Source of the DNA: Candidatus Bathyarchaeota archaeon
Lineage (GTDB): Archaea; Thermoproteota; Bathyarchaeia; TCS64; PIYN01
Direction: 5' to 3'
DNA: 64,000 bases
Assembly (NCBI GenBank): GCA_003601775.1
Contig: PIYN01000002.1
Coordinates: 203 to 64,202 of the forward strand
Below the pieces are notes generated by a model that saw only the letters and a program-made list of their open reading frames with translations, did no database searches and was not told the origin of the DNA. The translations under genes and the position numbers were made by a program. Within the stretch, counting starts at the first letter, position 1. Each line of letters begins with the position of its first letter. Of this stretch, positions 35,036 through 57,932 are shown one piece after another.

Positions 35036-35347
35036 TTACCTTTTATGCCGCTTCTGACGAGATCTCCTCTGCTCCTTCCTCCGGTAGTCCCGCTTCCTCT
35101 CGCCGTGGATCCTCACCCTCCTGAACTCCTGCCTCCCGGGGTCCCTCAGATACTGATTGACCTCGCGGTAGAAGTGGGAGTAGCTTATCTCCTCCTTGGA
35201 GAGCCTGGAGATCAGGTTGTTCAGCCTCTGCCTCTCCTCGACCCTGTGCAGGCCGTCCCAGGCCTTGGAGTAGGCCTCATAGGCCGCTCTGAACTTGAAG
35301 TCTCCCATCGAATCGAAGGTGAGCTTAGAAACCGGCTCTCTCTTCAT
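35036..35347 (-). CDS. hypothetical protein with a highly basic C-terminal tail
   Basis: The start at MKREPVSK is supported by an upstream TATA-like box. The C-terminal 35 aa are >50% R/K. Confidence 0.4.
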   Translation of the reverse strand: MKREPVSKLTFDSMGDFKFRAAYEAYSKAWDGLHRVEERQRLNNLISRLSKEEISYSHFYREVNQYLRDPGRQEFRRVRIHGERKRDYRRKEQRRSRQKRHKR

Positions 35348-35388
35348 CGTCACTACCAAGTCCTCAGAGGGATGAGATGGGTCCGTGG

Positions 35389-35396
35389 ATATAAAC
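35389..35396 (-). promoter_or_regulatory. TATA-like box (TTTATAT on minus strand) about 40 nt upstream of the 35347 start
   Basis: AT-rich octamer in an otherwise GC-rich context. Its spacing is consistent with an archaeal promoter with a short leader. Confidence 0.3.
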
Positions 35397-35526
35397 TCTT
35401 TCCCCCCATCGAGGACCCCGCAACGGGAATACAAAGCTTTAATAGTGTGGACCCTACCTATTGTGGCGTATACTTGGGATACCTCCCGGTATTCTGGGTG
35501 TAACTAATCGAAGAGGAGTGAGAAGT

Positions 35527-35685
35527 GTGAGTTACAGAGGGCGCAGCTACGGCCGCGGTCCGAGGGAGATGCATAAGGCCATCTGCTCCGATTGTGGGAA
35601 GGAATGTGAAGTTCCCTTCAAGCCCACTGAAGGTCGTCCGGTCTACTGCCGTGAGTGCTTCCAGAAGCGCAGAAGAAGATTTTAG
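35527..35685 (+). CDS. small CxxC-x17-CxxC zinc-ribbon protein with an RGG/SYRG-like N-terminus and a basic tail
   Basis: CSDCGKECEVPFKPTEGRPVYCRECFQKRRRRF has exactly 17 residues between the Cys pairs. GTG at 35527 lies 9 nt after a GGAG. ATG at 35569 is the alternative start. Confidence 0.5.
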   Translation: MSYRGRSYGRGPREMHKAICSDCGKECEVPFKPTEGRPVYCRECFQKRRRRF

Positions 35686-35865
35686 AATCTAAGTTAACGC
35701 TTTATCTTCACAGACCTTCTCTTTTTGTCATTTGAAGCATCTCAGAGGATAGCAGGCCTTCCTTTGAGCCGATTGCCGAGGATGAACATCATGGAGGTCG
35801 CGGATTGTAGCGTTTAGTAAAACTATTATTCCTTAAGGGGGATTTTATTTCTGGAGCTGCCTGGC

Positions 35866-36315
35866 TTGAACTCGGGGTTGAGCGACGCCGAGATCGAGGC
35901 CTTGTTGAAGGGTAAGACCCTCCTCGTCTACCTCTACCTCCTCAGGAGGGCGAATGAGGAGGGCGTGGGAGTCCGGGAGGTCCAGAGGATGCTCGGGTTC
36001 TCGAGCCCCAGCGTCGCCTCCTACCACCTGCAGAAGCTCGTGAACCTCGGCCTCGTGAGGAAGGAGCGGGGTCAGTATCTCCTTGCGAGGGAGGTGAGGG
36101 TCGGGATCCTCCGCCACTTCGTCATGATCGGCAGGTTCATGCTCCCCAGGTACCTCTTCTACGCCGTCCTCCTCACCACGATGCTCATTACCTACCTCAT
36201 CCAGTTCCCCCAGACCCTCTCAAGGTACAACGTCGCAACCCTCCTCCTGGGCACAGTCCCCACGATCATCCTATGGTACGAGACGATAAGAATATGGAGG
36301 GAGAAATTTCTATAA
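35866..36315 (+). CDS. membrane-anchored winged-helix (MarR/ArsR-like) transcriptional regulator
   Basis: N-terminal wHTH (VREVQRMLGFSSPSVASYHLQKLVNLGLVRKE) followed by two or three TM helices. Confidence 0.45.
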   Translation: MNSGLSDAEIEALLKGKTLLVYLYLLRRANEEGVGVREVQRMLGFSSPSVASYHLQKLVNLGLVRKERGQYLLAREVRVGILRHFVMIGRFMLPRYLFYAVLLTTMLITYLIQFPQTLSRYNVATLLLGTVPTIILWYETIRIWREKFL

Positions 36316-36412
36316 TAGGAGTCCTCCACCCCCATTAGCAGGATCCCTTTGGGGCAGAGAGGTGTTCTAAAGAGTAGTATTAAAAGGGTGTTCAGGGAGA
36401 TCCTTCTGCGGG

Positions 36413-36670
36413 ATGAAGCGGGCCTCCAAGATACTGGTGTACATCCTGATAGCGGCGATCTTGGGATATACGCTCATATCTATCCTGCCGGAGGAGGGAG
36501 TGAAGGTCTTAAGGAGGGAGTTGAATATGGCGGAATCCCTCTCCGGAGAAGGGTCTTCACCCACCCTCCCCCTCTGGGGCAAAAGCGGGGTTACGTGGAG
36601 CCTAGCTTGGCTCTTAGACCTGGCCATCGCCCTCTGCGTCTACCTGATCGCGAGGAACAGAATTCCGTAG
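36413..36670 (+). CDS. small membrane protein
   Basis: 85 aa with two hydrophobic helices. Confidence 0.3.
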   Translation: MKRASKILVYILIAAILGYTLISILPEEGVKVLRRELNMAESLSGEGSSPTLPLWGKSGVTWSLAWLLDLAIALCVYLIARNRIP

Positions 36671-36743
36671 AGAGACTTCGTAATACTCTCTAATATATTA
36701 GTCCTTATAACAGGGCTTTTAATCCTCCTATCAAAGACCGTGA

Positions 36744-36760
36744 CAGGGCCCTGGGATTTT
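36744..36760 (+). terminator. GC palindrome (CAGGGCCCTG) followed by a T-run; candidate terminator for the upstream + strand genes
   Basis: Perfect 10-nt palindrome followed immediately by GGATTTT, in a convergent intergenic region. Confidence 0.25.
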
Positions 36761-36803
36761 ACATGATCAGGGGATAAAATATCAGGGGCTCGAGGAAGGA
36801 TCC

Positions 36804-37601
36804 TCACTCGAAGCCCTTCTCCGTCAGGGCCTCGGCGAAGATCTCGCCGAACTCCGTGAGACGGACGCCCTTCAACTTCGCCCCCATCTCAGCCCTCACG
36901 AGGCCCTTCTCCTCCAACCGTGCCACGATCCTGCTGAAGCGGTTCCTCAGCGTGGAGTTCGGACTCTTATAGCCGAACCATCCGATGATCTCGCTTATGG
37001 AATCAGCCCGCCCCCCATGCTCCCTCAAGAGGATCAACAGCCTCTTCTCCTGCTCCCAGATCCTGCTCTCCCTCTCGCTATGCGGCTCAAGCCTATACCC
37101 AGGCAGCTTGATCTCCAACGGCTCCAGACTCGGGACGTTCCTCGCCGTCTCAAACCACTTCTGGAACTCCGGGTCTTCGGGCTTCCCCTTCACATACCAG
37201 GCGGGGCGTGCAGCCGGGACGGTGTAGACCCGGGCGTTCCTGAACATCAAGGCGATCGTCAGGGCGGCGCCCTCAGCGATATTCGTCGTTGAGGTGATAT
37301 CTATAAGGACCTCCTCCCCCTCCTCCCTCGCCCTGGCCAGGATCGCGTAGATCTTCTTGAAGGTATCCTTGTAGTCCATCGGGTCGAAGCCGACCAGGAT
37401 CGGGTCGAGGATCTCCAGCCTCTCCATCAGGTCCAGGGCGTTCTTACGGGACATGTAGGTGAAGACCTTCGTCTCGTCCTCAGCCTCCTTATCGCTGTAG
37501 AGGAGGTAGAGGCGAGTTATGCCCTTCCTCTTACTCCAGTACCTGATCCCCTCGAAGGGCCTCCTGAAATGCGTACCCACAAGGCAGACTATGACAGTCA
37601 A
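36804..37601 (-). CDS. Csa3-like transcriptional regulator (N-terminal CARF-like Rossmann domain + C-terminal winged helix)
   Basis: N-terminal VIVCLVGTH... and IDITSTTNIAEGAALTIALMFRNARVYTV parallel the Csa3 ligand-pocket segment. A C-terminal wHTH is present (SISEIIGWFGYKSPNSTLRNRFSRIVARLEEKGLV). Confidence 0.4.
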   Translation of the reverse strand: MTVIVCLVGTHFRRPFEGIRYWSKRKGITRLYLLYSDKEAEDETKVFTYMSRKNALDLMERLEILDPILVGFDPMDYKDTFKKIYAILARAREEGEEVLIDITSTTNIAEGAALTIALMFRNARVYTVPAARPAWYVKGKPEDPEFQKWFETARNVPSLEPLEIKLPGYRLEPHSERESRIWEQEKRLLILLREHGGRADSISEIIGWFGYKSPNSTLRNRFSRIVARLEEKGLVRAEMGAKLKGVRLTEFGEIFAEALTEKGFE

Positions 37602-37997
37602 ACCCGATAATCACCCAGATTCCGCATAAAGGGTATCTGTGAGGGGACTTAAGAATTTTTTGGAAGAACACTAAAAAGATCAATTGTTACAAAAATATTG
37701 GACATACATAATTATATCAGCATAATACTCTATTTTTAAATAACTCGAAGAAAGACGTCGAAAATCGATCTTCGAAGTATTAACGAAGATGAACAACTTT
37801 TTATAGGATGATTTTCAAAAGTTGATCTTAGCCTTTGATGCGGAGGCTTAGTATTCATGTCCTCTAAGGAGGTTACGGTATCTACTCTCCTACAGGATAT
37901 CCCCAACCAGTTCCCCAAGGCTTGGTTGAGGAGGGGTCAAGTAGGAACAGATAATGGCATCTTTCAACGTTAAATCGCCAACTCTGGGGCAAAGAAG

Positions 37998-40241
37998 ATG
38001 GATAAGGAATTGCAAAGATCGGTTGAAAAAATAAGACATCCGAGGTATATAAGGAAGAGAGATGGCAGACTTGAGGAGTTTGACCAGAGGAGGATCACCA
38101 TAGCCATATCCAAGGCCTTTAATGCAGTTGGGGAGAAGGATGGAGAGATCCACAAGAGGCTCAGCGACGAGGTCGTCCGCCAGCTGTATGAGAGGTACGG
38201 GGAGGAAGGCGTCCCAACGGTTGAGGAGATACAGGACCTGGTAGAGCATACGCTGATGAAGAACGGGTTCTACGAAGTCTCGAGGGCCTACATCCTCTAC
38301 AGGGAGAAGAGGAAGGAACTCCGGGAGCTGGCCTTCCTCTTGGAGTCAGGGGACATGGTCGATAAGTATCTTCAAGAGATGAGCTGGTATGTGAGAGAGA
38401 ACGCCAATCTGGGATATTCGATGCAGGGGCTCAACAATTATCTCGTCTCGAAGGTCATCTCCCAGTACTGGCTTATGCGGATCTACCCCCCGGAGATAAG
38501 GAGGGCACATATTAATGGAGACTTTCACATCCACAACCTTGGCATTCTCGGCCCCTATTGTGTTGGATGGTCCCTGCCAGATCTGTTGATGGAAGGGTTC
38601 GGCGGGGTCGCAAACAAATTGGAGAGTAAGCCCCCAAAGCACTTCAGCGTCGCCCTTGGCCAAGTCGTCAACTTCATGTATACCCTCCAAGGTGAGGCCG
38701 CCGGTGCTCAGGCCTTCAGCAACTTCGACACGTATCTCGCCCCCTATATCAGAGAAGATAGACTGACCTACAGAGAGGTCCTCCAGACGATGCAGGAGTT
38801 CCTCTTCAACATGAACGTCCCCACTCGTGTCGGGGGTCAGACGCCCTTCACCAACATAACAATGGATCTGAGGGTTCCGAGGTTCATGGAAAATGAGGGA
38901 GTAATAATCGGTGGGAAGATACAAGACTCCGTGTTCGGGGACTTCCAGGAAGAGATGGAGATGTTCAACAAGGCTTACCTCGAGGTCATGCTCCAAGGTG
39001 ATGCGAAGGGCAGGATCTTCTCCTTCCCGATACCAACCTACAATGTCACAGAGGATTTCCCTTGGGATTATGAGCCTCTATGGAAGTTGACCGCAAAGTT
39101 CGGGGCTCCATACTTCTCCAATTTCATCAACTCGGATATGAAGCCAGAGGATGTCCGGTCGATGTGCTGTAGGCTGAGGATAGATAACAGAGAGCTGAGG
39201 AAGAGAGGAGGGAGCTTCTTCGGCGCTAACCCCCTAACGGGCTCCATCGGGGTAGTCACGATAAACATGCCAAGGCTGGGATACCTCTCAAAGGAAGAGG
39301 ACGAATTCTTCGAAAGACTCGATCACCTCATGGACCTGGCGATGCAGAGCCTGGAGATCAAGAGGAAGACGGTGGAACGATTCACGGAATACGGCCTATA
39401 CCCCTTCTCCAGGCACTATCTCAGACACATCAAGGAAGGATTTGGGAGTTATTGGAAGAATCACTTCTCAACGATAGGATTATTAGGAATGAATGAGGCT
39501 TGCCTGAACTTCTTCGGCGAGGGGATAGAGAGCGATGCTGGGTTGGCCTTCGCCAGAAAGGTGCTCCTGCACATGCGGGAGAGACTCGCCGACTATCAGA
39601 TAGAGACGGGAAATATCTACAATTTGGAGGCGACCCCGGCCGAGGGGAGCAGCTACCGCTTAGCGAAGTTGGATAAGAGTAGGTACCCTGATATAATAGT
39701 CGCGAATGAGAGGTTCTTAGCCAGTGGCGCCGAGCCCTTCTATACCAACAGCACATGGCTCCCAGTGGACCATGAATTATCGCTTGGGGAGGCCCTCCGT
39801 CACCAGGATCAGCTGCAGCCGCTCTACACGGGTGGGACGGTCTTTCATATATACTTGGGGGAGGCATACACCTCATGGGAGGGGGCTTCCAAGTTGATAA
39901 GGAGGATCTTCAAGAACTTCCACCTCCCCTATGTCACCGTCACTCCAACATTCAGCGTGTGTCCAACCCATGGCTACATCTCAGGAGAACACTTTAGATG
40001 TCCGACTTGTGGTGCTGCCTGTGAGGTCTACTCCAGGATCGTAGGATACTTCCGCCCAGTCTCCCAGTGGAATAAGGGTAAGCAGAGCGAGTTCAAGATA
40101 AGGAAGGTCTTCGGAGGGGTTAAGAGTGACAAGGATATGAGCCCGGCGTCACCTTTGCCAATAATCCCCCGTACGAAGGAGGAGGTAAAGATCGAGAGAA
40201 GAGTGTCTGAGGAAGATGGGGCTGGGGGTGATCTTCTGTGA
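37998..40241 (+). CDS. nrdD: anaerobic ribonucleoside-triphosphate reductase (class III), ATP-cone-containing
   Basis: N-terminal ATP-cone (IRKRDGRLEEFDQRRI), a C-terminal zinc ribbon (CPTHG...CPTCG) and a glycyl-radical motif (SRIVGYF). Confidence 0.8.
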   Translation: MDKELQRSVEKIRHPRYIRKRDGRLEEFDQRRITIAISKAFNAVGEKDGEIHKRLSDEVVRQLYERYGEEGVPTVEEIQDLVEHTLMKNGFYEVSRAYILYREKRKELRELAFLLESGDMVDKYLQEMSWYVRENANLGYSMQGLNNYLVSKVISQYWLMRIYPPEIRRAHINGDFHIHNLGILGPYCVGWSLPDLLMEGFGGVANKLESKPPKHFSVALGQVVNFMYTLQGEAAGAQAFSNFDTYLAPYIREDRLTYREVLQTMQEFLFNMNVPTRVGGQTPFTNITMDLRVPRFMENEGVIIGGKIQDSVFGDFQEEMEMFNKAYLEVMLQGDAKGRIFSFPIPTYNVTEDFPWDYEPLWKLTAKFGAPYFSNFINSDMKPEDVRSMCCRLRIDNRELRKRGGSFFGANPLTGSIGVVTINMPRLGYLSKEEDEFFERLDHLMDLAMQSLEIKRKTVERFTEYGLYPFSRHYLRHIKEGFGSYWKNHFSTIGLLGMNEACLNFFGEGIESDAGLAFARKVLLHMRERLADYQIETGNIYNLEATPAEGSSYRLAKLDKSRYPDIIVANERFLASGAEPFYTNSTWLPVDHELSLGEALRHQDQLQPLYTGGTVFHIYLGEAYTSWEGASKLIRRIFKNFHLPYVTVTPTFSVCPTHGYISGEHFRCPTCGAACEVYSRIVGYFRPVSQWNKGKQSEFKIRKVFGGVKSDKDMSPASPLPIIPRTKEEVKIERRVSEEDGAGGDLL

Positions 40242-40282
40242 GGTTGATCTTCTTTAGATAGCATGAGGGAGGGTTATCAATT

Positions 40283-40558
40283 ATGACCTCGGAGTCTGTA
40301 AGGGTGTATACTCTCCCTGGGTGTCCCCACTGCCAGGTCTTGAAGGATTGGTTGAATAGGAGGGGGATACCCTTTGAGGAGAGGAGTTTCGACACCGAGG
40401 TTCAGGTGGAGTTCATCATGAGGAATATCTTCTCGGACCCGCCGATCCTGGAGGTGGGGTCGAGGATCCTCACCTCCGATGAGATCTTTCAGGGGGAGGA
40501 GATAGATGAGGATAAATTGAGGGAGGTCTTCCATGAAGAGGGCGAGGAGAAGGGGTAA
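40283..40558 (+). CDS. nrdH: NrdH-like glutaredoxin/thioredoxin-fold redoxin
   Basis: 91 aa with a CPHC active site near the N-terminus (VRVYTLPGCPHCQVLKDWL). It sits between the two nrdD genes. Confidence 0.65.
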   Translation: MTSESVRVYTLPGCPHCQVLKDWLNRRGIPFEERSFDTEVQVEFIMRNIFSDPPILEVGSRILTSDEIFQGEEIDEDKLREVFHEEGEEKG

Positions 40559-40619
40559 GGGAAAGGTCCTGCCACCCCCCTTGGAGCAGTTCTTCAAGGC
40601 GGAGAGGAGATACAGAGGC

Positions 40620-42797
40620 ATGCCGATGGTCAGGACGACCGACGGCTACCTCGTCCCCTGGAATAAGAGGAGGATCGTCGAGCAGCTCCTCGAGGAGACC
40701 CAATTGGCGGAGAAGATGTTCGGTGTTCCGCCGATCAGCGTGGAGTACGCGGAGAAGATCGCGGATGAGATCGAGCGACGTGTCAAGACGATGAGGCCGA
40801 GGTTCGTGAGCGGGCCGCTGATACGTGAGGTGGTGAACAACGTCCTCTTGGAGTGGTCTGAGGAGCGCCCGGAGTTCCAGATCTACAGGAACATCCTCAC
40901 CCGTGTCGGCGTCCCCATCTATGACGCCTATCAGATCGACCTGGGGCGGGGGTGGGAGGCGAGGGAGAACGCCAACCTCCAGCCCAACCCCGAGACGACG
41001 CATAAGAAGAAGGCCGACAGGCTGAGCAAGGAGGAGTACCTCCTCCTCCTGGACCCGGAGATCGCGACGGCCCACCACCAGGGCGACATCCACATCCACA
41101 CCCTGGAGTACTTCGGGACCCGCCCCTTCTGCCAGGACTGGGACCTGAGGTTCTTCCTCTACTACGGGCTCCTCCCCGACGGCACAGGCTTCAGGTCGAG
41201 CGTCGCCGGGCCCGCGAAGCACCCCGAGGTGGCGATCCTCCACAGCGTCAAGGTCCTGGCGGCGGGGCAGACGAACTTCAGCGGCGGCCAGGGCTTCATG
41301 TACTACACCGTCTTCCTGGCGCCCTACCTGAGAGGACTTCCCTACGAAGAGGTGAAGCAGCTGGCCCAGATGATGTTCTACGAGTTGACGCAGACCTACG
41401 TCACCCGTGGGGGACAGCTGGTCTTCAGCAACATCCAGCTCCCCATGGGAGTCCCGGAGATCTGGGAGGACGTCCCCGTCGTCATGAGAGGCAGGGTCGG
41501 CCCTGACATCTATGGGAACTATGAGGACGAGGTCCAGACCTTCTTCCGGGCCATCACGGAGGTGGCTCTGGAGGGGGACTACTGGGGGAAGCCCTTCAAC
41601 TTCCCGAAGAACGAGAACTACGTCAGCCCAGAGTTCTTCAAGCCCGAGTACGACGACCTCTGGCTCCTCGTCCACAGGGTCGTGGCTAAGTATGGCGCCC
41701 CCTACTTCGATAACATGCTCCCCAGGTACAGGGGCTACGGCCATGGGATCTCCTGCTACCAGTGCTGTGCCTACAACTTCGTCGAGACGCCGGAGACGGA
41801 TCCGGATTTCGAGGCCAAGGTCAACTTCGAGGATGGCGCCCACTTCAGTATGGGTGGGTGGCAGGTCGTGAGCATCAACATGCCCCGTCTGGCCTACAGG
41901 GCCAACGGGGACTATGATAAGCTCCTCGAGGGGGCGAGGAGGAATATGCGCCTCGCCGTCGAGGTCTTCAAGGCGAAGAGGCAGTGGATGGAGACTATGC
42001 TGGAGAATAACCTCATACCCTTCGCGACACAGAGGCCGAGGGACCCGAGGACCGGGAAGCTGGCGCCCCCAGCCGTAGACTTCAAGGAGCTCGTCTACGT
42101 CATAGGCGTCGTGGGGATCAACGAGATGGTCCAGTACTTCACGGGGAGCCAGCTCCATGAGAGCCAGGACGCCGTGAGGCTCGCCCTCCGCCTCCTGCTG
42201 GATATGGAGAGGTATCGGAAGGGTCTTGAGATGCAGACGGGGATGAAGATCAGGTTGGCGAGGACGCCGGCAGAGAGCACCGCTCAGACCTTCGCCGTCG
42301 CGGACCTCGTCTCGCCCAAGTACAGGAAAGCAGCCCAGACGGTGATCAAGGGGGACCTGAAGGAGGCGAAGAGGCTCCTGGCCCTTGGGGAGAGGGACCT
42401 CCCCATCTACTACAGCAACGGAACCCACACCTACGTCGGCGCGAAGATCCCCCTGGGGAAGAAGATCGATATAGAGCATAAGTTCTTCCCCATCCTGAGC
42501 GGGGGGAATATCTTCCACGTCTGGATGGGGGAGGCCTCACCCGACCCCGAGGCGGTCTACAAGATGACGAAGCGGATAGCCTCCAAGACCCAGATCGGCT
42601 ACTTCGCCTACACCAAGGACCTGACGATCTGTAGCCACTGCCAGACGACCTCCAGCGGCCTGAACGACGCCTGCCCCAACTGCGGGAGCAAGGATGTTAG
42701 ATGGTGGTCGAGGATCACGGGCTACTACACCGACGTCACGGGCTGGAACGAGGGGAAGAAGCAGGAGCTGAAGGAGAGGTACCGGCTCAGCATCTGA
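40620..42797 (+). CDS. nrdD: anaerobic ribonucleoside-triphosphate reductase (class III) paralog 2
   Basis: Degenerate ATP-cone (MVRTTDGYLVPWNKRRIV), zinc ribbon (CSHCQ...CPNCG) and a glycyl-radical motif (SRITGYY). The ATG at 40620 has a GGAGAGGAG 9 nt upstream and is preferred to the ORF-track start at 40533. Confidence 0.75.
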   Translation: MPMVRTTDGYLVPWNKRRIVEQLLEETQLAEKMFGVPPISVEYAEKIADEIERRVKTMRPRFVSGPLIREVVNNVLLEWSEERPEFQIYRNILTRVGVPIYDAYQIDLGRGWEARENANLQPNPETTHKKKADRLSKEEYLLLLDPEIATAHHQGDIHIHTLEYFGTRPFCQDWDLRFFLYYGLLPDGTGFRSSVAGPAKHPEVAILHSVKVLAAGQTNFSGGQGFMYYTVFLAPYLRGLPYEEVKQLAQMMFYELTQTYVTRGGQLVFSNIQLPMGVPEIWEDVPVVMRGRVGPDIYGNYEDEVQTFFRAITEVALEGDYWGKPFNFPKNENYVSPEFFKPEYDDLWLLVHRVVAKYGAPYFDNMLPRYRGYGHGISCYQCCAYNFVETPETDPDFEAKVNFEDGAHFSMGGWQVVSINMPRLAYRANGDYDKLLEGARRNMRLAVEVFKAKRQWMETMLENNLIPFATQRPRDPRTGKLAPPAVDFKELVYVIGVVGINEMVQYFTGSQLHESQDAVRLALRLLLDMERYRKGLEMQTGMKIRLARTPAESTAQTFAVADLVSPKYRKAAQTVIKGDLKEAKRLLALGERDLPIYYSNGTHTYVGAKIPLGKKIDIEHKFFPILSGGNIFHVWMGEASPDPEAVYKMTKRIASKTQIGYFAYTKDLTICSHCQTTSSGLNDACPNCGSKDVRWWSRITGYYTDVTGWNEGKKQELKERYRLSI

Positions 42798-42810
42798 GAG
42801 GAAGCGGGGA

Positions 42811-43344
42811 ATGATACTATCGGACGCCGAGCTGATACGGTACATCGAGGACAAGTTGCTGATCGTGGAGCCCTTCGATGAGGAGATCCTGAAGGAGAAC
42901 GGCCTCGACCTGAGGATCGGCTACGAGATCGCGAGGATCATCGACCCAGGGGCCGTGATCGATATCCGGAGCCCCGGGCTCGAGCGGTTCTACAGGAGGG
43001 AGAGGGTGAATGAGGGGGGTTTCATCCTCCATCCAAATGAGCACCTCCTCACCACCACCCTCGAGGCCATCACCCTCCCAAACGACCTCATGGCCTTCTG
43101 CGAACTCAGGAGCACCTTCGCCCGCCTCGGCATCAGTATCCCCCCCACGGTCGTGGACGCCGGCTTCTCCGGAAACCTCACCATCGAACTCCTGGGGAGC
43201 ATGGCCCCTGTGAGGCTGTACCCCAAGACGAGGTTCCTACACCTGGTCTTCGCGAGGCTCTCCAGCCCCGTGAGGAGGCCCTACAGGGGGAAGTACTATA
43301 GGCAACAGGGAGTGACCCTCCCGAGGATGGAGGAGCCCAGGTAA
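42811..43344 (+). CDS. dcd: dCTP deaminase (dUTPase-fold)
   Basis: 177 aa. ILSDAELIRYIE start and dUTPase-like motifs (VVDAGFSGNLTIEL). Confidence 0.75.
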   Translation: MILSDAELIRYIEDKLLIVEPFDEEILKENGLDLRIGYEIARIIDPGAVIDIRSPGLERFYRRERVNEGGFILHPNEHLLTTTLEAITLPNDLMAFCELRSTFARLGISIPPTVVDAGFSGNLTIELLGSMAPVRLYPKTRFLHLVFARLSSPVRRPYRGKYYRQQGVTLPRMEEPR

Positions 43345-43404
43345 GGCCCGGTCTTTCACCGCTTAAGATTTTAGGAGGGATGGACTCCCCCTTAGTGAGC
43401 ACAC

Positions 43405-44331
43405 ATGAGGCCGAAGGTTGTCCATGTAAGAGGGAGCGTCTACATGATCGACGCCAGCTACCACGGCCGGAGAGGCGTCCTCGGCACCTACGTGGTGAAG
43501 GGAGAGGAAGTGGCCGTGGTGGACCCAGGGCCAACGGTCTCGATCGACGGCCTCGTGGAAGCGTTAAGGGACCTGGGCATCGACCTCAGCGATGTGAGGT
43601 ACGTCGCCCCCACCCACATCCACCTGGACCACGCCGGGGGGTCCTGGAGGCTCCTGGAGCTCTGTCCTGGGGCGAGGCTCTACATCCACCCCAAGGGGGC
43701 GCCCCACATGGTCGACCCCTCGAGGCTCGAGGCAGCAGCTCGGAGGCTCTTCGGAGACCGTGTGGACGAATACGGCGAAGTCAGGGGCGTGTCTGAGGAG
43801 AGGGTCACGGTCTCTGTCGACGGAGAGGAGCTGGACCTCGGGGGTGGACTGAGGATAAGAGTTGTCTGGACCCCTGGGCATGCCTCCCACCATCAGAGCT
43901 ACTACATCCCCGATGGCAAAGTGGTCATCCTGGGGGATGCAGGGGGGATATATAACCGGGACCTCGATGTCGTCATACCTACCTCCCCGCCGCCCTTCAA
44001 TCCGGAGAAGGCGATGAGGAGCCTTGAGAAGCTGGCCGCCTTGAGGCCGGAGATCGTGTGCTACGGGCACTTCGGCTTCGCAGATGATGCCGTCAAGAGG
44101 CTCAGGGCTCATAGGGAACAGCTGGCGCTCTGGATGAGGGTTGTCGAAGAGGGGCTCAAGGAGGGGGCGGGGATGGGGGAACTCTACGATAGGTTGAGGT
44201 CCGAGGACCCCATGCTGGGGAGGCTCCCCGCCCCAGGGCATTTTGGAGGGAGAGCTATCGAACGGTCGCCCTCCGTGAACCTCCTGGGCTTCGTGGAGTA
44301 CTTCAAATGGCTCTGGAGGGGAGGGAGGTGA
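43405..44331 (+). CDS. MBL-fold metallo-hydrolase
   Basis: THIHLDHAGG motif with downstream His/Asp ligands. Confidence 0.6.
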   Translation: MRPKVVHVRGSVYMIDASYHGRRGVLGTYVVKGEEVAVVDPGPTVSIDGLVEALRDLGIDLSDVRYVAPTHIHLDHAGGSWRLLELCPGARLYIHPKGAPHMVDPSRLEAAARRLFGDRVDEYGEVRGVSEERVTVSVDGEELDLGGGLRIRVVWTPGHASHHQSYYIPDGKVVILGDAGGIYNRDLDVVIPTSPPPFNPEKAMRSLEKLAALRPEIVCYGHFGFADDAVKRLRAHREQLALWMRVVEEGLKEGAGMGELYDRLRSEDPMLGRLPAPGHFGGRAIERSPSVNLLGFVEYFKWLWRGGR

Positions 44332-44337
44332 CTCCGC

Positions 44338-45753
44338 TCACGCCTTGACCTTGTGGTAGCGGTTTCTCTCTATGTAGAGGTCTATCTTCTCCGGCGACTC
44401 CACCACGAACTCCACGGGCTGCTTAACGCCCTCCGAGTAGATATAGAACTCATAGTTCTCCATATCCTCCCTCTCTGGGATCAGGGGGACGCGCATCTCC
44501 GAGAACCAGCCCCCCCTCTCCAGATATAGGAGGCCACCATGCTTCACTACCTTCACCCTACTCAACCCCCGGTAGATCTCGTAGGTCCCCGTAAGCAGAT
44601 CCATCCTCCTCCATATCCGCAAGAGGGGGACGACCTCCTCAGGGTCCTTTCCCATCAAGGCCGCGAAGATCCCCTGGGCGATGGGGGCGTAGGGAAAGCC
44701 CGCGATGTTGGAGGCCATAGCGACACCCATCCTCTCTTCAGGCACAAAGGCAAGGTAGGCGGTGGACACCAGTATCGACCCCCCATGGGAGACCAATTTA
44801 TGTCCCAGGAAGTTCTCTATGACGCCCCAGCCATAGCCGTACCCGTTCCTCCCATAGAGGCCTGGAGGCCTCTCTATATGTATCCTCTGCATCTCCTCCA
44901 TGAGCTCAGGGCTCAGGAGCTCAACATTCCCGAACCTGCCTCCGTCGATGTTCATCCTCAGGTAGTTCGTGAGTTCCCTCACCGAGCTCAACATCCCTCC
45001 AGCGGCGGCTATGAAGGAGAACTCGGGGTTGCTCTTCACATCTGGATAGGGGAAACTCTTGGGGATCAGCCTCCCCTCCTTGTCCTTGATGTAGGGGGTC
45101 ATCCTATCCGGGTCCCTCTCGAAATCTCCCTTTGAAAAAGTCGTCCTCTCCATCTTGAGAGGCTTCAGGATCTTCTCCCTGATGTAGACATCAAAGGGCA
45201 TCTCGCTCACCCTCTGGATGATATCGCCGAGCATCCGGTACCCCGCGTTCAGGTAGAAGAACCTCCTGCCGGGCTCGTCCGCTATCTCCTCCTGAGCCCC
45301 GTTGATATGCCTGTAGAAGTCGTCGGCGCTCCCGAAGGGGATCCCCACGTCCCCCCTGATCCCCCTTGAGAGGGCTATCGTCGACGTGCCGAGGGAGGGG
45401 ATACCGGAGGAATGGGTCAATAGGTGGTGCACCGTGATCGGCTTCCCCGGTATCCCGATCTTGAGGGGGATGTACTTACTCACAGGGTCGTCGAGGCTGA
45501 TCTCCCCCCTCTCCACCAGCTGGAGGATTGCGAGAGCGACGAAGGACTTTGTGCAGGACCCTATGCCGTAGAGGGTATCCGGGGTGGCGGGGAGACTCCT
45601 CTCGACATCCCGCACACCGAACCCCTCGGCGTACACGACTTCCTCTCCTTCAACTACAGCTATGCTGAGGCCAGGCACTCTCCTCTGAGCCATAAGCTCT
45701 GGAACTCTCTTCTCAATAAAGCGCCTCATCCCATCAAGGTCTTCCTTAGACAA
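44338..45753 (-). CDS. serine hydrolase of the beta-lactamase / penicillin-binding-protein family
   Basis: S-x-x-K motif (GSCTKSF), and a 471-aa size typical of class C-like esterases and D-aminopeptidases. Confidence 0.65.
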   Translation of the reverse strand: MSKEDLDGMRRFIEKRVPELMAQRRVPGLSIAVVEGEEVVYAEGFGVRDVERSLPATPDTLYGIGSCTKSFVALAILQLVERGEISLDDPVSKYIPLKIGIPGKPITVHHLLTHSSGIPSLGTSTIALSRGIRGDVGIPFGSADDFYRHINGAQEEIADEPGRRFFYLNAGYRMLGDIIQRVSEMPFDVYIREKILKPLKMERTTFSKGDFERDPDRMTPYIKDKEGRLIPKSFPYPDVKSNPEFSFIAAAGGMLSSVRELTNYLRMNIDGGRFGNVELLSPELMEEMQRIHIERPPGLYGRNGYGYGWGVIENFLGHKLVSHGGSILVSTAYLAFVPEERMGVAMASNIAGFPYAPIAQGIFAALMGKDPEEVVPLLRIWRRMDLLTGTYEIYRGLSRVKVVKHGGLLYLERGGWFSEMRVPLIPEREDMENYEFYIYSEGVKQPVEFVVESPEKIDLYIERNRYHKVKA

Positions 45754-45771
45754 CTCAACCTCCCCTCTAAC

Positions 45772-46710
45772 CTATCCTGTTTTCTCGAGGAATATACTCC
45801 GGGGCAGATAAGCCGAGACGATCCAGTTGGGCTTATCGACGACCTCCGTGATCTTGAGGTCCACGACGATGCTGCAGAGCATATAGGCCTCCCACGGCTC
45901 CATCTGGTGCTCCTCAGAAAGGTACTCGACCATCTCCTTGACGGCCCTCCTCGAGGCCTCCATGAGGTCAGGGGCGATCCCCATCGTCACGTAGTACCCG
46001 GCCTCGTCGTACCTCCTCGTGAGCGGCCCGGGTGTGATGATCCTCGGTGCGAGGAGGCCCATCTTCTTCCTCAGCCTGAACCTGAGACTCACGTGAAGCG
46101 GGGCCTCTATCGCCGTGACGCAGACCTCCCCGTCTCCCTGGGCGGCGTGGCCGTCCCCGAGGGAGAAGAGGGCCCCTTCCACCCAGACGGGGAGGAGGAG
46201 CCTGCTCCCCCTCGTCAGGTGCCGCAGGTCCATGTTCCCGCCATGCCTCCCCGGCGGCATCACGGGGTGCTTCCCCTCCTCCAGTGGGGCCACCCCCATC
46301 GTCCCGCAGAAGGGGTCGAGGGGGATCCTTATGTCCTCCCTGAAGTAGGTGTGGTCGCCTGGGGAGAGGTCCCAGATCTTCAGCCTCGGCTCACTGAACT
46401 CCTCTAAGAGGCCGAAGCCCGGTATGATCGCGGACCACCCCCACCCCTTCGCGTGGATATCCAAGATCTCCACCTCCAAGGCATCCCCGGGCTCCGCCCC
46501 CTCGATGTACGTCGGCCCGGCGAGGGGGTACAGCCGATCCCAGTCAAGGCGGGAGAGGACGTCTGCCGTGGACTGGGGGGTTATCTGCCCGTCGGAGACC
46601 TCCCTCAGCTCGTACACAACGACGTCTCCAGGTGATACCCTTATCGCCGGCTCCAGGCTGTTATCCCACTTATAGTGGACCTTATCCTCGGGGAAAAGAT
46701 GGAACTTCAT
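45772..46710 (-). CDS. acetamidase/formamidase family amidohydrolase (FmdA/AmdA)
   Basis: GPTYIEGAEPGDALEVEI and HGGNMD motifs typical of the family. Confidence 0.65.
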   Translation of the reverse strand: MKFHLFPEDKVHYKWDNSLEPAIRVSPGDVVVYELREVSDGQITPQSTADVLSRLDWDRLYPLAGPTYIEGAEPGDALEVEILDIHAKGWGWSAIIPGFGLLEEFSEPRLKIWDLSPGDHTYFREDIRIPLDPFCGTMGVAPLEEGKHPVMPPGRHGGNMDLRHLTRGSRLLLPVWVEGALFSLGDGHAAQGDGEVCVTAIEAPLHVSLRFRLRKKMGLLAPRIITPGPLTRRYDEAGYYVTMGIAPDLMEASRRAVKEMVEYLSEEHQMEPWEAYMLCSIVVDLKITEVVDKPNWIVSAYLPRSIFLEKTG

Positions 46711-53463: not shown

Positions 53464-54112
53464 CCACCTCCAATCTGACTATGATATCCGATTCCCCCTC
53501 CTGCAGGAGGTCTATCTCCCCCCTCTGGGCGAGGAAGAGCAGGAGGAGGAAGGTCCTGATATACTGAAGCCTGTCGCTCCCTTCCACCAACCTCGAGAAG
53601 AGCACCTCCTCGCCGCGCAGGGACATATCTCGGATCCTCTCCAGGAGCTCCTCGGCCTTCTCCTTGATCTCGACGAGCCACTGGTCTATCTTTGGAAGAT
53701 CATAGATGGGCTCCGGTAGGATGGGGGGCTTGGGCTTAGTTGACGCCGTCTCACCCTCCATCAGCGCCCTCTCAAGGGCCGAGATGAGGTCCTTGAGGGT
53801 GGTGGAGGGGAGCTCGAACCTCAAGGGGAGGGTTATGGGCGGAGGGAGGTAGAACTCCGCCTTCTCCTTCCTCTTCTGGGGTGGCTCCTCGAGCTTTAGG
53901 AGGAGCTCCGCCTTCTTCAGGTAGAGGAGCCCGGAGGAGTAGACGGCTGTCCCAGCGAGCCTGAAGTCGATCCCGGCCTTGTACATCTCCTCCAGGAGGG
54001 ACATGAGGAGGTAGGCGAGGTCTATGCTCCAGGGGTTGACGTTCTCCAGCTTGGTGATCTTGAAGAGGACGTCCCAGGGCGGGCGGAGGTAGTAGGGCTT
54101 CTCGGCCGTCAC
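53444..54112 (-). CDS. scpA: segregation and condensation protein A (kleisin)
   Basis: About 222-aa helical protein placed between smc and scpB, with overlapping starts and stops. It has a kleisin-like N-terminus. Confidence 0.55.
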   Translation of the reverse strand: MTAEKPYYLRPPWDVLFKITKLENVNPWSIDLAYLLMSLLEEMYKAGIDFRLAGTAVYSSGLLYLKKAELLLKLEEPPQKRKEKAEFYLPPPITLPLRFELPSTTLKDLISALERALMEGETASTKPKPPILPEPIYDLPKIDQWLVEIKEKAEELLERIRDMSLRGEEVLFSRLVEGSDRLQYIRTFLLLLFLAQRGEIDLLQEGESDIIVRLEVDEDEER

Positions 54113-57100: not shown

Positions 57101-57654
57101 TCGAGACGCTTCTTAGCCTCGGCCTTCTTCTCATCGTACTCGGTGATGCCTATGAGGCTCTCTATCGCCCTCATCCTCTCGATGGGGGTGATGTCACTGA
57201 GCCTCGTGGCCGTCCCCTGAAGGACGATGTTATAGCCCTCCGCGCTTATGCCGGCCATCTTCAGGAGGTTGATCACGGTCTTCCTGGAGACGGGCTTGCC
57301 GTTCAAGAAGTACTTGCTCCTCCCCTCCCGGTCCACCCTCCTCCCTATGCTGACAACTCCCTTATCTATCGCTATCCCCCTATCGGAGTTATCGAACTTC
57401 AGGGTGACCTGGGCATAATCTACCTTTCTACCACCTGCCTCTCCAGCCCCATCGTAGATGACTCCGGAGAGGGAGGAGACCCGCATTCTCCTCGGTCCGA
57501 GCTCCCCGAGGACGAACTGGAAGGCGTCGATGATGTTGCTCTTCCCACTCCCATTAGGGCCCGTGATGACCGTGAAGCCCGGGGCCAAGTTCAGCTTGAC
57601 TGTTCCATGGAAGGACTTGAAGTTCCTTAATACGATCTGCTTCACGTAGACCAT
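54109..57654 (-). CDS. smc: chromosome segregation protein SMC
   Basis: Walker A (GPNGSGKSNIIDAFQFVLGE), a long coiled coil, a hinge (AIPGYHGIL region) and a C-terminal signature/Walker B (LSGGERSVAAIAYLLAI, LFDEIDAHLD). Confidence 0.9.
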   Translation of the reverse strand: MVYVKQIVLRNFKSFHGTVKLNLAPGFTVITGPNGSGKSNIIDAFQFVLGELGPRRMRVSSLSGVIYDGAGEAGGRKVDYAQVTLKFDNSDRGIAIDKGVVSIGRRVDREGRSKYFLNGKPVSRKTVINLLKMAGISAEGYNIVLQGTATRLSDITPIERMRAIESLIGITEYDEKKAEAKKRLEEAERKVEVAAARIDEVRKRLISLERERNDALRYQFLKEEERRLKARQLSYEVLRVEAEIERLNQRIKAKEEELRRLEAERGRLLSERAEAKEALERFSQEAAEKGNTRLPLINSEVVRQREIIGALRKRAEEIERRRGILLRSMKEWREELERLRREGEEVERKIKTLSGEISSLEGEIEEKESLRLGLSERISQLREEVERGQRRIEELEERLGPIRESLEGLEIEINRHLLALETLRERLKGLNEKMSESDKRIENLKKNLREFEELKRAEEKKLEDFLRDLEQRVERQKSLRRRAEEASDLVSKVENAIIEFTAKRDLWERIATEEKALQRIEEMGKSGAIPGYHGILRDLIKVPQKYRRAVEASSDGWINAVVVEDLSSALRCIKSLKKSEMGMVRILPLQEVRPVGVREGATDEGLVAPIPSLVRCREKFSSLVNLVWGDTLLVKNVEAAIRVSSQGYRAVTPSGDVYEPEGGMMGGHYRSILGISKIIPSKESVVKLSKTIKALKRVLNKKMRDLKLSGGDLRKVSSYIEDSRKHIENLESNIEQIAESIRRAERNRGLIERKVKETLREIKREEGLIASLRERKERTLKEMERLKGEISKLSGRKPSDVASLEVQAAQLDKELEALRKERGELERERLMARGRLESLIKPKISDLEKRLLSAADSLKALEEENVKVRGELEEAEKILRELEEERSALTEAVESTSRVMRLHQEKIKGIEAEIEKIERRMGALEQERMELSLEVERRRLHVEQLMKGLRELGQAEPIPTGEDEIKGFERALRAVRSEIERIGAINQLAVEQYDEQMRNYKQLSIRINELEEEKASILKFIEEIEEEKLRHFMKSFNEICENFTEFFSKLTGGGEGRLEFQNPQDPFSAGIDLYVQFPGKPMRLASGASGGERSVAAIAYLLAIQKFLKAPFYLFDEIDAHLDDLNTDRLAEVLRENSAEAQFIVITLKDAMINRAERVYGCFSRGGRSRVVTLPRLEVVT

Positions 57655-57932
57655 ATCCGAAGCTCTCCACGCGACGCCCTGAGTTGACTCGTCGCCTCTC
57701 CTTACTGTCTTCCTCTTAATTCCTCGGGGAGGCCTCGCCGATTATTTTAGGTATGCATTAAAGATGTTCAACCCTTCGCTACGTTGATCGCCCTAATTGG
57801 GGAGTATTATTCGATATTAGAACGAGGGATCGAAGCAGTTATTCGAAGATATGGGGAACTACGATCCTCTTGCACTTAGTAAGTGGTCGATCCTTTAAAT
57901 AACTTTATCGATCCTTCTTGACCTGAGGAGGT

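Follow-up and report, generated by a model that had tools for sequence, protein, structure and literature searches.

The 265-aa protein encoded beside the anaerobic ribonucleotide reductase (RNR) genes of this Bathyarchaeota contig, hereafter REG, is probably a transcription factor of the Csa3/HFX_2341 lineage in which a CARF domain is joined to a winged helix-turn-helix (wHTH) domain, and which serves as a non-CRISPR housekeeping regulator of the glutaredoxin-RNR operon grx-nrdD in one clade of Bathyarchaeia. Its fold and family placement, the loss of the Csa3 motifs from its pocket, a synteny with grx-nrdD that is conserved in both directions, and conserved cis-elements in the DNA between them carry this reading. 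The window, i.e., the whole stretch of DNA that we analyzed, spans 64 kb, and its relevant features are collected in Table 1. The original prediction, made from the sequence of the window, had seen an orphan Csa3-like CARF regulator that responds to nucleotide signals and controls deoxynucleotide supply, an interpretation that as a whole is partly supported by our results.

Table 1. Features of the REG-nrd region (positions in the window)
Feature	Position	Strand	Basis
149-aa wHTH protein with C-terminal membrane anchor (putative)	35866..36315	+	ORF, sub-threshold wHTH matches, hydropathy
Degenerate TAATAY-N3-RTATTA copy, 2 mismatches, 110 bp past the REG stop	36681..36695	+	Motif scan
REG, CARF-wHTH protein, 265 aa, start TTG	36804..37601	-	ORF, homologues, AF2, profiles
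REG C-terminal winged helix (~176-260), predicted	36822..37076	-	AF2 secondary structure; faint DUF6293_C/MarR_2 matches
REG linker motif LPGYRLEP, residues 166-173, between CARF and wHTH	37083..37106	-	Invariant columns in alignment A1
REG D101-I-T-S-T-T-N107 signature, beta4-alpha4 loop, CARF motif II position	37281..37301	-	Orthologue alignment
REG CARF-like sensor domain, residues 1-~135, predicted	37197..37601	-	Secondary structure, superposition, profile matches
Divergent control region REG-nrdD1, 396 bp	37602..37997	.	Composition, inverted repeats, spacer alignment
Second TAATAC box, inverted orientation	37723..37728	+	Sequence scan
TAATAC box (GTATTA on +), candidate REG half-site	37777..37782	-	Spacer conservation
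Putative archaeal TATA box TTTTTATA, nrd operon promoter	37798..37805	+	Aligned to conserved TATA block of 58 spacers
nrdD1, anaerobic RNR, intact ATP-cone	37998..40241	+	Pfam NRDD 1e-193, ATP-cone 1.7e-25; NCBIfam
grx, glutaredoxin/NrdH-like redoxin, first gene of conserved target operon	40283..40558	+	Pfam, NCBIfam
nrdD2, conserved partner RNR	40533..42797	+	Pfam, NCBIfam; synteny
dCTP deaminase-like gene, final nrd-island gene of this lineage	42811..43344	+	Pfam DCD 7e-32

Fold and family of REG

The REG gene and its start are real because the protein aligns over its entire length with 149 database homologues, each of which shares 63% identity or more with it and comes from Bathyarchaeota wherever a name is given, and both this ORF and the neighboring one of 149 aa are confirmed where they had originally been placed. 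An AF2 model of the REG monomer (pLDDT 89.2, pTM 0.87) predicts an N-terminal alpha/beta domain and a C-terminal winged helix, and the linker motif between them was the pattern that we used to search for related loci. When this model was compared to the PDB with Foldseek, the top match was Csa3 (2wte_A, E 9.9e-8), the cA4-bound Csa3 structure 6WXQ was also among the matches listed, and all 50 of these were CARF proteins; the CARF domain superposes on Can2 (8bao_B) over 128 columns with an rmsd of 1.6 Å. Searches of PDB sequences with REG alone gave nothing but noise and required a profile of distant relatives (A2, built from 56 of them), which matched Can2 (4e-10), the ring nuclease Crn1 Sso2081 (6.5e-6), Sis0811, Csm6', Card1, and Csx1, while MarR-family structures were matched by profile in the wHTH part. 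As modeled, REG is a CARF domain followed by a C-terminal winged helix, and AF2, Foldseek, profiles, and the CARF3 family of PADLOC agree on the Csa3-like architecture that had been proposed for it.

Profile comparisons also place REG within the diversity of CARF proteins. The PADLOC CARF3 model PDLC01866 matches it with E 5.3e-14 (positions 1-204 of the 207 in the profile pair with residues 1-256), and 12 more of the 13 matching CARF3 models score below this one; the label "CARF3" rests on the model names of PADLOC-DB, and the underlying CARF1-9 classification scheme reportedly goes back to Makarova et al. 2020. The best Pfam family is HFX_2341_N (E 1.2e-5), though REG stays under the gathering scores of both HFX_2341/DUF6293 entries (26.1 vs 30 and 15.5 vs 27 for PF19810 + PF22665). 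Some of its orthologues carry precomputed PF19810 or PF22665 annotation and one is already named an HFX_2341 family regulator by NCBI. Among the 56 more distant relatives, the N- and C-terminal HMMs of this family match 48/56 (HFX_2341_N) and 35/56, respectively, with some matching Csa3_N or CARF_Card1 as well. An IDITSTT loop, which by our own reading of the alignments and not by any published definition is an HFX_2341/DUF6293 signature, stands in the consensus of both the orthologue alignment A1 and A2, and DITSTT is kept across the wider HFX_2341 family at identities down to ~20%. Judging from these similarities, REG is a divergent HFX_2341/DUF6293 member within the PADLOC CARF3 clade; its orthogroup is a separate, tight one (a single 50%-identity cluster), and the sister group of relatives at 41-44% identity adjoins NurA-HerA.

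Conserved residues of REG lie in two loops of the predicted CARF pocket, the beta1-alpha1 loop LVGTHFRRPF and the beta4-alpha4 loop DITSTTN. CARF motif II, which follows beta4, is said to read [DN]-x-[ST]-x3-[RK] (Makarova et al. 2014); REG has D101-I-T103, but the usual terminal Arg/Lys is replaced by Asn107. Across A1, D101 and T103-T106 are invariant, and G9, H11, R14, and N107 nearly so. Few parts of the protein are conserved as well as these loops, a pattern that argues for a functional site. It is improbable, in our view, that the CARF-like domain has become a ligand-free dimerization scaffold of a repressor that is constitutive or controlled by redox state or a partner: the canonical phosphate-binding Gly and Arg/Lys are indeed gone from the pocket, and Csa3a binds DNA in vitro independently of cA4 (PMC8699464), but such a scaffold would fit poorly with the near-invariance of the pocket loops and with the retention of DITSTT throughout the wider HFX_2341 family.

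REG compared with Csa3 and CRISPR-linked CARF proteins

The original prediction had invoked the sensing of cyclic oligoadenylates and had counted HFX_2341/DUF6293-type regulators as a non-CARF family whose recognition would speak against a Csa3-like protein. REG is of the HFX_2341/DUF6293 type, yet this family is itself Csa3-like CARF, so that the choice between Csa3 and HFX_2341 is a false dichotomy. HFX_2341 resembles Csa3a (HHpred 99.7% to 2WTE), is found in CRISPR-free haloarchaea, and acts in Haloferax mediterranei as a global regulator with a diffuse regulon and vertical, CRISPR-independent inheritance (PMC11434293). REG shares the DITSTT signature with the HFX_2341/DUF6293 family (PF19810 + PF22665) but differs from HFX_2341 in having a conserved, specific partner operon.

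As to the ligand, Csa3 contacts cA4 through motif 1 (T-h-G-F-(N/D)-E-x4-R) and motif 2 (L-x2-G-h-R), of which G96 and R98 bind the phosphates (PMC8699464). Both motifs are absent from REG, which has L7-V-G-T-H-F-R-R-P-F-E17 and L99-I-D-I-T-S-T-T-N107 instead and keeps Gly9 alone. With the cA4-contacting residues of Csa3 replaced by GTHFRR and a Ser/Thr-rich DITSTTN loop, the effector of REG is probably not cA4, at variance with the proposed oligoadenylate sensing. The Csa3 HMM TIGR01884 reaches only 11.9 bits in REG (cutoff 60.2) with a match confined to the wHTH, and Pfam Csa3_N does not match REG itself. By its sequence, REG is not a Csa3.

The genomic context points the same way. No CRISPR-like array turned up in the window, which makes up almost the entire 64.8-kb contig, or in 75 related loci, a total of 1.03 Mb of sequence, and PADLOC analysis of the 65 ORFs of the window gave no cas family among the best 25 of 112 matched families. 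This agrees with the original statement that the window holds no CRISPR-Cas. A defense island can be dismissed as well, given that a single SMC-like protein of 1181 aa accounts for all the many PADLOC matches to ATPases (LmuB, JetC, mad3, GajA, and others). We accordingly regard it as unlikely, at roughly a long shot, that REG is an ordinary CRISPR-ancillary Csa3 that senses Cas10-made cyclic oligoadenylate, with its place beside nrd genes being incidental or reflecting an antiviral coupling to dNTP supply. The identical architecture, the structural matches to 2WTE and cA4-bound 6WXQ, and the CARF3 profile matches would suit such a protein, and CRISPR-Cas could lie beyond the contig. The failure of TIGR01884 outside the wHTH, the missing motifs 1 and 2, the absence of arrays from all 1.03 Mb, and the CRISPR-free hosts of the kindred HFX_2341 (PMC11434293) argue against it, as does the fact that nrdD rather than cas is the neighbor at essentially every locus.

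Two characterized CARF proteins with DNA-binding domains are instructive here. Csa3a (Sso1445 / SiRe_0764), a CRISPR-associated transcription factor, has the same order of N-terminal CARF and C-terminal MarR-like wHTH, and it also controls DNA-repair genes, which may be compared to the NurA-HerA neighborhood of the REG relatives at 41-44% identity. Unlike Csa3a, REG has its cA4-contacting motifs replaced, does not match the Csa3 HMM, lacks cas/CRISPR context, and has an anaerobic RNR operon as its neighbor and likely target. The CARF-HTH ring nuclease Sis0811 (SSO1393) combines CARF and HTH as well and gives the best whole-chain TM-scores (0.46-0.50 with 7pq2/7pqa). Together with the profile match to Crn1 Sso2081 (E 6.5e-6), this might suggest that REG degrades a cyclic nucleotide instead of regulating transcription, as a ring nuclease of the Sis0811/Crn1 kind, a reading to which we give very little credence. 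In the profile alignment, DITSTTN pairs with the Sso2081 segment DITGGRK and the Sis0811 segment INATAGLK, so that the nearly invariant Asn107 falls on Sso2081 K106 (our own numbering) and on the K169 position of Sis0811 that is mutated in 7pqa (the mutant names S12A and K169G are taken from PDB titles). The catalytic pair of a beta1-loop Ser and a beta4-loop Lys is absent from REG, which has Thr10-His11 and Asn107 there. REG further differs from Sis0811 in lacking type III context, and CRISPR context is likewise missing from the PADLOC families listed and, as far as arrays go, from the 1.03 Mb of related loci.

The RNR island and its control region

A class III RNR island lies divergent to REG, as originally described and as seen from ORFs and Pfam matches (Table 1). 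Of the 49 orthologous loci that extend 3 kb or more upstream of REG, 48 have a divergent nrdD next to it on this side, in 46 of them behind a leading glutaredoxin gene; these counts stem from kindred genomes and are not independent. The sole exception (L049) has no nrdD nearby. The nrdD2 orthologues adjoining REG are 74-89% identical. In the reverse direction, REG is found ~500 bp upstream in 19/20 NrdD2 orthologues at least 72% identical, the single exception being the lineage of the window itself. Overall, the pairing is near-universal both ways across ~65 species-level genomes, while the genes beyond it vary from locus to locus. The genomes with REG include two complete ones, CP070640 and CP070784. 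More distant NrdD2 relatives (62-70% identity) keep grx but have REG in 0/39 cases, which means that the operon does not generally need REG.

In the window, nrdD1 is an extra nrdD paralogue, which L003 and L074, both close relatives, lack at this place. Gene order in these relatives points to a lineage-specific insertion of nrdD1 directly behind the conserved promoter and ahead of grx. The dCTP deaminase-like gene at the end of the island is shared with both relatives. The two reductases also differ in their ATP-cones, which is degenerate in NrdD2 (KRDG changed to VRTTDG). At one further locus (L068), the neighbor of REG is of the other nrdD type, that of nrdD1.

The DNA between REG and nrdD1 fits the palindrome-rich, AT-rich leader that had been noted there, with 38.4% GC compared to 58.7% in the window and 27 short inverted repeats vs 8.8 ± 4.9 in dinucleotide shuffles, 0/200 of which reach 27. 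Its REG-proximal ~230 bp, aligned with L003, are homologous to the REG-grx spacer of the relatives, which is mostly 255-266 bp long (58 loci) and contains conserved blocks in spite of a protein identity of only ~65%. Of the 58 spacers, 57 have TAATAC or the complementary GTATTA (shuffles: mean 16, max 25), and TAATAC stands at a fixed position, ~15-20 bp upstream of the putative nrd-side TATA box across loci and ~15 bp in the window. There, the two TAATAC boxes flank nested palindromes (arms 37739-37751 and 37769-37781). In Csa3a, the CAPPa site lies 12 bp upstream of BRE/TATA (PMC8699464), i.e., like the candidate operator of REG just upstream of these elements. The spacers also contain an AATCRT repeat (1.69 vs 0.45 per spacer), an enrichment that is not separable from shared ancestry. 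A riboswitch-like leader of nrdD1 was rejected because its ~170 nt fold no better than shuffles (z = -0.03), and Rfam gave no match in the window at gathering thresholds. The conserved boxes could also be sites of another factor or core-promoter elements.

A related palindrome, TAATAY-N3-RTATTA, is found at 1.6 copies per kb downstream of REG, 0.73 upstream, and 0.008 in the other 790 kb, i.e., ~100-200-fold denser beside the REG gene than elsewhere in the loci. In 32 orthologous loci it stands at +110..+132 past REG, ahead of a 258-aa gene that follows REG in 57/61 loci; its product has no Pfam, NCBIfam, or PDB-sequence match, and its fold shows only weak likeness to eIF2B / ribose-1,5-bisphosphate isomerase. 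In the subclade of the window, copies of this palindrome deviate from it by 2 mismatches and the REG-side TATA box is weak, both of which count against our preferred reading. That these strongest palindromes precede the 258-aa gene, and that HFX_2341 acts as a global regulator (PMC11434293), would be compatible with a REG that controls itself and this gene only, or a dispersed regulon. The nrdD adjacency could then reflect an inherited, frozen gene order of one clade and no regulatory link. We hold this to be a minority possibility, since the window, L003, and L074 keep the REG-nrd pair without the 258-aa gene, a near-invariant box stands by the nrd-side TATA in a REG-grx spacer of fixed length, and the pairing outlasts replacement or insertion of the nrdD type (L068 and the window).

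On the other side of REG, the 149-aa protein had been proposed as a membrane-tethered wHTH regulator next to the nrd locus. Residues ~14-77 give sub-threshold matches to MarR/TrmB/ArsR wHTH domains, and a clear hydrophobic segment (96-115, Kyte-Doolittle >= 1.6) is followed by a weaker second one, in line with that description. As a partner of REG, it was rejected: it belongs to a large family (>1,500 proteins, widespread in Bathyarchaeia), no homologue is present in 70 REG loci, and one adjoins REG only in L074, the closest relative examined, and not in L075. From this distribution, it appears to be an incidental neighbor outside the REG module.

REG as a probable regulator of DNA-precursor synthesis

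As REG lies beside anaerobic RNR genes throughout the clade, its dedicated role is probably to regulate the synthesis of DNA precursors, and the original suggestion that it controls deoxynucleotide supply draws strength from the two-way synteny with grx-nrdD in ~65 species-level genomes and from the conserved spacer elements. Most likely, REG regulates grx-nrdD locally and under the control of a ligand. DNA binding at the cis-elements, the sign of regulation, dimerization, and the ligand are what we infer beyond these observations. REG would form a dimer, as presumed by analogy with other CARF proteins, whose winged helices would bind AT-rich boxes of the TAATAC type in the divergent region of fixed length that REG shares with the grx-nrdD operon, and the related palindrome downstream of the REG gene may be a further site. 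Through these sites, REG would govern how the anaerobic RNR operon, and probably its own gene, is transcribed. A small nucleotide-like effector in the CARF pocket would switch DNA binding or the recruitment of TFB/TBP, and our leading guess is an endogenous nucleotide, whether an adenine (deoxy)nucleotide or a different one.

More speculatively, and only as a tentative proposal, REG may be the Bathyarchaeial counterpart of NrdR, with its remodeled CARF pocket (GTHFRR / DITSTTN) reading an endogenous metabolite, either an adenine (deoxy)nucleotide or a compound related to it, to set anaerobic RNR transcription. NrdR, the bacterial RNR repressor, senses nucleotides and is devoted to RNR operons, whose promoters its paired boxes overlap, and it is reported to be absent from or rare in archaea. 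The likeness is functional only because the folds are unrelated; neither the Zn-ribbon nor the ATP-cone of NrdR finds a match in REG with Pfam and family HMMs. We found nothing relevant in the literature tying CARF wHTH proteins to RNR. The practical payoff is modest. Bathyarchaeia are known to have few cultured representatives, if any, so that biochemical or heterologous routes are required.

Control of RNR transcription in archaea is poorly understood, and REG offers a strongly conserved candidate together with a ~260-bp control region and candidate operators. CARF domains are known almost solely as receptors of CRISPR-made cyclic oligoadenylates. A protein of this kind that is inherited vertically throughout a clade and lacks the cA4 contacts, yet conserves its pocket, points to a non-CRISPR ligand. 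If the reading as an NrdR counterpart is true, the action of REG would make up for the degenerate ATP-cone in the conserved partner NrdD2, and the CARF-wHTH lineage would include dedicated housekeeping regulators for DNA precursors and DNA repair, of nrdD here and of NurA-HerA in the sister group, with the CRISPR-linked Csa3 proteins as one branch of it.

Fold, family, and ligand pocket of the regulator

Both reading frames of the original prediction, i.e., the 265-aa CARF-wHTH protein (hereafter REG) and a 149-aa wHTH membrane protein, lie where it had placed them, and gene and start of REG are validated because its homologues align end to end. The database holds 149 of these, every one at least 63% identical and ca. 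265 aa long, and the named ones are from Bathyarchaeota. The AlphaFold2 model of REG (pLDDT 89.2, pTM 0.87), made from a shallow alignment of 31 orthologues that are all at least 63% identical, shows an N-terminal alpha/beta domain joined by a linker to a C-terminal winged helix. All 50 matches listed by Foldseek against the PDB are CARF proteins, headed by Csa3 (2WTE, E 9.9e-8) and followed by Csm6, the CARF-HTH ring nuclease Sis0811, SSO1393, Card1, Can2, Cad1, and Cam1, which bears out the proposed Csa3-like CARF and wHTH architecture. Whole-chain TM-scores are modest (0.37-0.50), an effect that we ascribe to domains being oriented differently; taken by itself, the CARF domain superimposes on Can2 over 128 columns at 1.6 Å.

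Only 79 clusters related to REG emerged when 1.84 billion representatives were searched exhaustively with a profile. Against the PDB, a profile from 56 relatives matched Can2 (4e-10), Crn1 Sso2081, Sis0811, Csm6', Card1, and Csx1; 48 of these 56 match Pfam HFX_2341_N, and fewer match Csa3_N, CARF_Card1, or Cas_APE2256. REG itself scores 26.1 bits against HFX_2341_N, slightly under the threshold of 30, and is matched across its full length by the PADLOC CARF3 profile (E 5.3e-14). We rejected REG as a member of the Csa3 family (HMM, 11.9 vs 60.2 bits), the match being confined to the wHTH. HFX_2341 is a vertically inherited regulator that also occurs in CRISPR-free haloarchaea and matches Csa3a 2WTE at 99.7% in HHpred (PMC11434293). 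An HFX_2341/DUF6293-type assignment had been set up as the non-CARF alternative, yet REG is of this type and a CARF protein at once, so that the dichotomy is false. It belongs to the CARF3/HFX_2341 lineage, not to Csa3 proper, and like Csa3a and HFX_2341 it couples a CARF sensor to a wHTH.

The ligand site of Csa3 is formed by motif 1 (T-h-G-F-N/D-E-x4-R) and motif 2 (L-x2-G-h-R), with Gly96 and Arg98 of the latter holding the cA4 phosphates (PMC8699464). Compared by loop position and inspection, the corresponding loops of REG read LVGTHFRRPFE and LIDITSTTN, i.e., the cA4-contact motifs are replaced at both and one Gly alone survives; Asn107 of the second loop aligns with a loop Lys in the ring nucleases Sso2081 and Sis0811. 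Even so, few parts of the protein are as well conserved as the pocket loops, and DITSTT is kept throughout the wider family down to ca. 20% identity. Such a pocket looks functional but retuned; neither ring-nuclease activity nor sensing of the cyclic oligoadenylate cA4 is likely.

Pairing with an anaerobic ribonucleotide reductase locus

The class III RNR island described beyond the 396-bp spacer next to REG is genuine, with two nrdD paralogues that are 28-30% identical. In the window, nrdD1 is a recent insertion between a conserved promoter and grx, not present at this position in L003 and L074, two close relatives. The scanned ORFs of the island and its flanks (35036..46710) included no identifiable nrdG-like activase.

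Features of the regulator locus and other annotated elements of the window
Feature	Position (strand)	Remarks
74-aa CxxC-x17-CxxC treble-clef zinc-finger gene	35461..35685	Pfam zf_Tbcl_2, E 6e-21; between IleRS and 149-aa wHTH genes
149-aa wHTH gene	35866..36315 (+)	
85-aa ORF	36413..36670	two strongly hydrophobic segments; between 149-aa wHTH gene and REG 3' end
Degenerate palindrome	36681..36695	exactly +110 from REG stop
REG	36804..37601 (-)	265 aa, TTG start
REG-nrdD1 spacer	37602..37997	
Inverted TAATAC	37723..37728	nested palindromes between this and GTATTA
GTATTA	37777..37782	TAATAC in REG orientation
Putative nrd-side TATA	37798..37805	
nrdD1	37998..40241 (+)	NRDD, intact ATP-cone
grx (glutaredoxin/NrdH-like)	40283..40558 (+)	
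nrdD2	40533..42797 (+)	NRDD, degenerate ATP-cone (VRTTDG where nrdD1 has KRDG)
dCTP-deaminase-like gene	42811..43344 (+)	last of the island
SMC-like gene	54109..57654	1181 aa
TAATAY-N3-RTATTA, one mismatch	57805..57819	divergent spacer upstream of SMC-like gene
tRNA-Pro(TGG), predicted	63372..63466	95 nt

The divergent position of REG and nrd genes extends well beyond this contig. The contexts of three homologues showed a small glutaredoxin-like gene as divergent neighbor and then nrdD, with varying farther flanks. Scanning one genome per GTDB species yielded 70 loci, and among orthologues (at least 60% identical) whose upstream sequence extends for 3 kb or more, nrdD is the divergent neighbor in 48 of 49 (grx and nrdD in 46, nrdD alone in 2; the remaining locus has neither). 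In the reverse direction, with NrdD2 as query against metagenome contigs, REG lies ca. 500 bp upstream in 19 of 20 orthologues at least 72% identical; the sole exception is the window's own lineage, in which nrdD1 intervenes. NrdD2 relatives of 62-70% identity keep grx and have no REG (0/39). These counts make the pairing tight both ways inside one clade and absent outside. It also outlasts a change of nrdD type, in the window and in locus L068, where the divergent neighbor is an nrdD1-type gene instead of grx-nrdD2 and the spacer lacks the conserved blocks; a 79-aa ORF in between (L068:3048-3287) is possibly a small wHTH by eye.

Three distant REG relatives (41-44% identity) have no nrdD close by. 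Two of them, which rank as closest to REG outside its orthologues and come from Thermoprotei and Methanomethylicia MAGs, divergently adjoin a two-gene NurA-HerA operon (L071:7219-9748, L072:926-3474), in which the ca. 310-aa gene before HerA matches NurA in L071 and has no Pfam match in L072. This context is reminiscent of Csa3a, which controls DNA-repair genes.

As originally noted, the window, which is nearly all of a 64.8-kb contig from a Bathyarchaeota MAG, shows no CRISPR-Cas: no CRISPR-like array was found within it, and the best 25 of 112 PADLOC families matched by its 65 scanned ORFs include no cas family. PADLOC ATPase matches (mad3, 8.5e-55; LmuB, JetC, GajA, PtuA) were rejected as defense systems, all being spurious matches of the single SMC-like protein. 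The length of the tRNA-Pro(TGG), exceeding that of a standard tRNA, is consistent with an archaeal intron.

"Membrane-tethered wHTH" is a reasonable description of the 149-aa protein (100% identical to CW700_00780, encoded on the same contig) because of its wHTH matches to MarR/TrmB/ArsR, all sub-threshold, and its C-terminal hydrophobic segments, one clear and a second weaker. Its family is widespread in Bathyarchaeota (>1,500 members, mostly 146 aa). No homologue was found in the 70 REG loci. Besides the window, only L074, the closest lineage, has the gene next to REG, and L075 does not; the protein is an incidental neighbor. A 71%-identical copy of the zinc-finger protein lies near REG in L003. 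The 85-aa ORF has no family matches and an 81-aa counterpart at the equivalent place in L074; its coding status is uncertain because of overlapping ORFs in other frames.

At 57 of 61 orthologous loci (L002:10999-11775 and 56 others), though not in the window, the gene that comes after REG in the same orientation encodes a conserved ca. 258-aa protein. Its 643 homologues are all "hypothetical", it has no match in Pfam, NCBIfam, or PDB sequences, and its AlphaFold2 model (pLDDT 87) bears a weak likeness to eIF2B alpha/beta/delta and ribose-1,5-bisphosphate isomerase (E ~1e-3). This protein may act together with REG in handling sugar phosphates or nucleotides.

Candidate cis-elements around the regulator gene

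The spacer had been called a palindrome-rich AT leader, and its composition agrees: GC content is 38.4% (58.7% for the window), and its 27 short inverted repeats are threefold the 8.8 +/- 4.9 of dinucleotide shuffles, of which 0/200 reach 27. The REG-grx spacer of relatives is 255-266 bp long in most of 58 loci and holds conserved blocks between flanking proteins that are merely ca. 65% identical, i.e., two TATA-like elements, a nearly invariant cATAATACT, GAATAATCAC/GACAATC, GATTGTCTCA, and AATCAT. We found TAATAC or its complement in 57 of 58 spacers (shuffle mean 16, maximum 25); TAATAC stands at a fixed position, some 15-20 bp before the nrd-side TATA.

Of 57 spacers downstream of REG, 50 also contain the hexamer, in many cases within the palindrome TAATAY-N3-RTATTA, which typically marks the ca. 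200-280-bp gap to the 258-aa gene. When one mismatch at most is tolerated, the 300 bp after REG contain 32 copies of this palindrome, all at +110..+132, the 300 bp before REG contain 14, and the other 790 kb of the loci contain just 6. These counts are drawn from related genomes and do not represent independent events, yet they identify a putative cis-element specific to REG flanks. In the window, the box, an inverted copy with nested palindromes between the two, the putative nrd-side TATA, and a degenerate downstream palindrome are preserved at the positions tabulated above. The candidate box shares the geometry of the Csa3a CAPPa site, reported just upstream of BRE/TATA (PMC8699464).

Proposed control of deoxynucleotide supply

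The best-supported reading is ligand-controlled CARF-wHTH control of grx-nrdD: REG, presumably as a dimer, would bind TAATAC-type boxes and thereby govern how this operon, and probably its own gene, is transcribed. Activation is mildly favored because the candidate box stands upstream of the TATA. An adenine (deoxy)nucleotide is an attractive guess for the ligand, given that the remodeled loop is rich in Ser/Thr, that His/Arg are conserved, that the genomic context is one of nucleotide metabolism, and that the ATP-cone of the conserved NrdD2 is degenerate; for HFX_2341, cAMP or c-di-AMP was suggested by its authors (PMC11434293). Among the REG-less NrdD2 relatives, locus L140 carries a 769-aa NrdD-like paralogue upstream of grx-nrdD (L140:1157-3466) with a fused N-terminal ArsR-like wHTH and a C-terminal glycyl-radical motif that looks altered; this paralogue may be another kind of regulator for the operon, one derived from an enzyme.

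Judged against the searchable literature, four things are new: the clade-wide pairing of REG with an anaerobic RNR operon, the cis-elements that go with it, its loss of cA4 contacts, and the position of the sister group next to NurA-HerA. What REG does past its fold, family, and synteny we infer. NrdR, the bacterial nucleotide-sensing RNR repressor, is absent from archaea according to one source and, according to another, controls just a few archaeal RNRs; REG would be its functional analogue with an unrelated fold.
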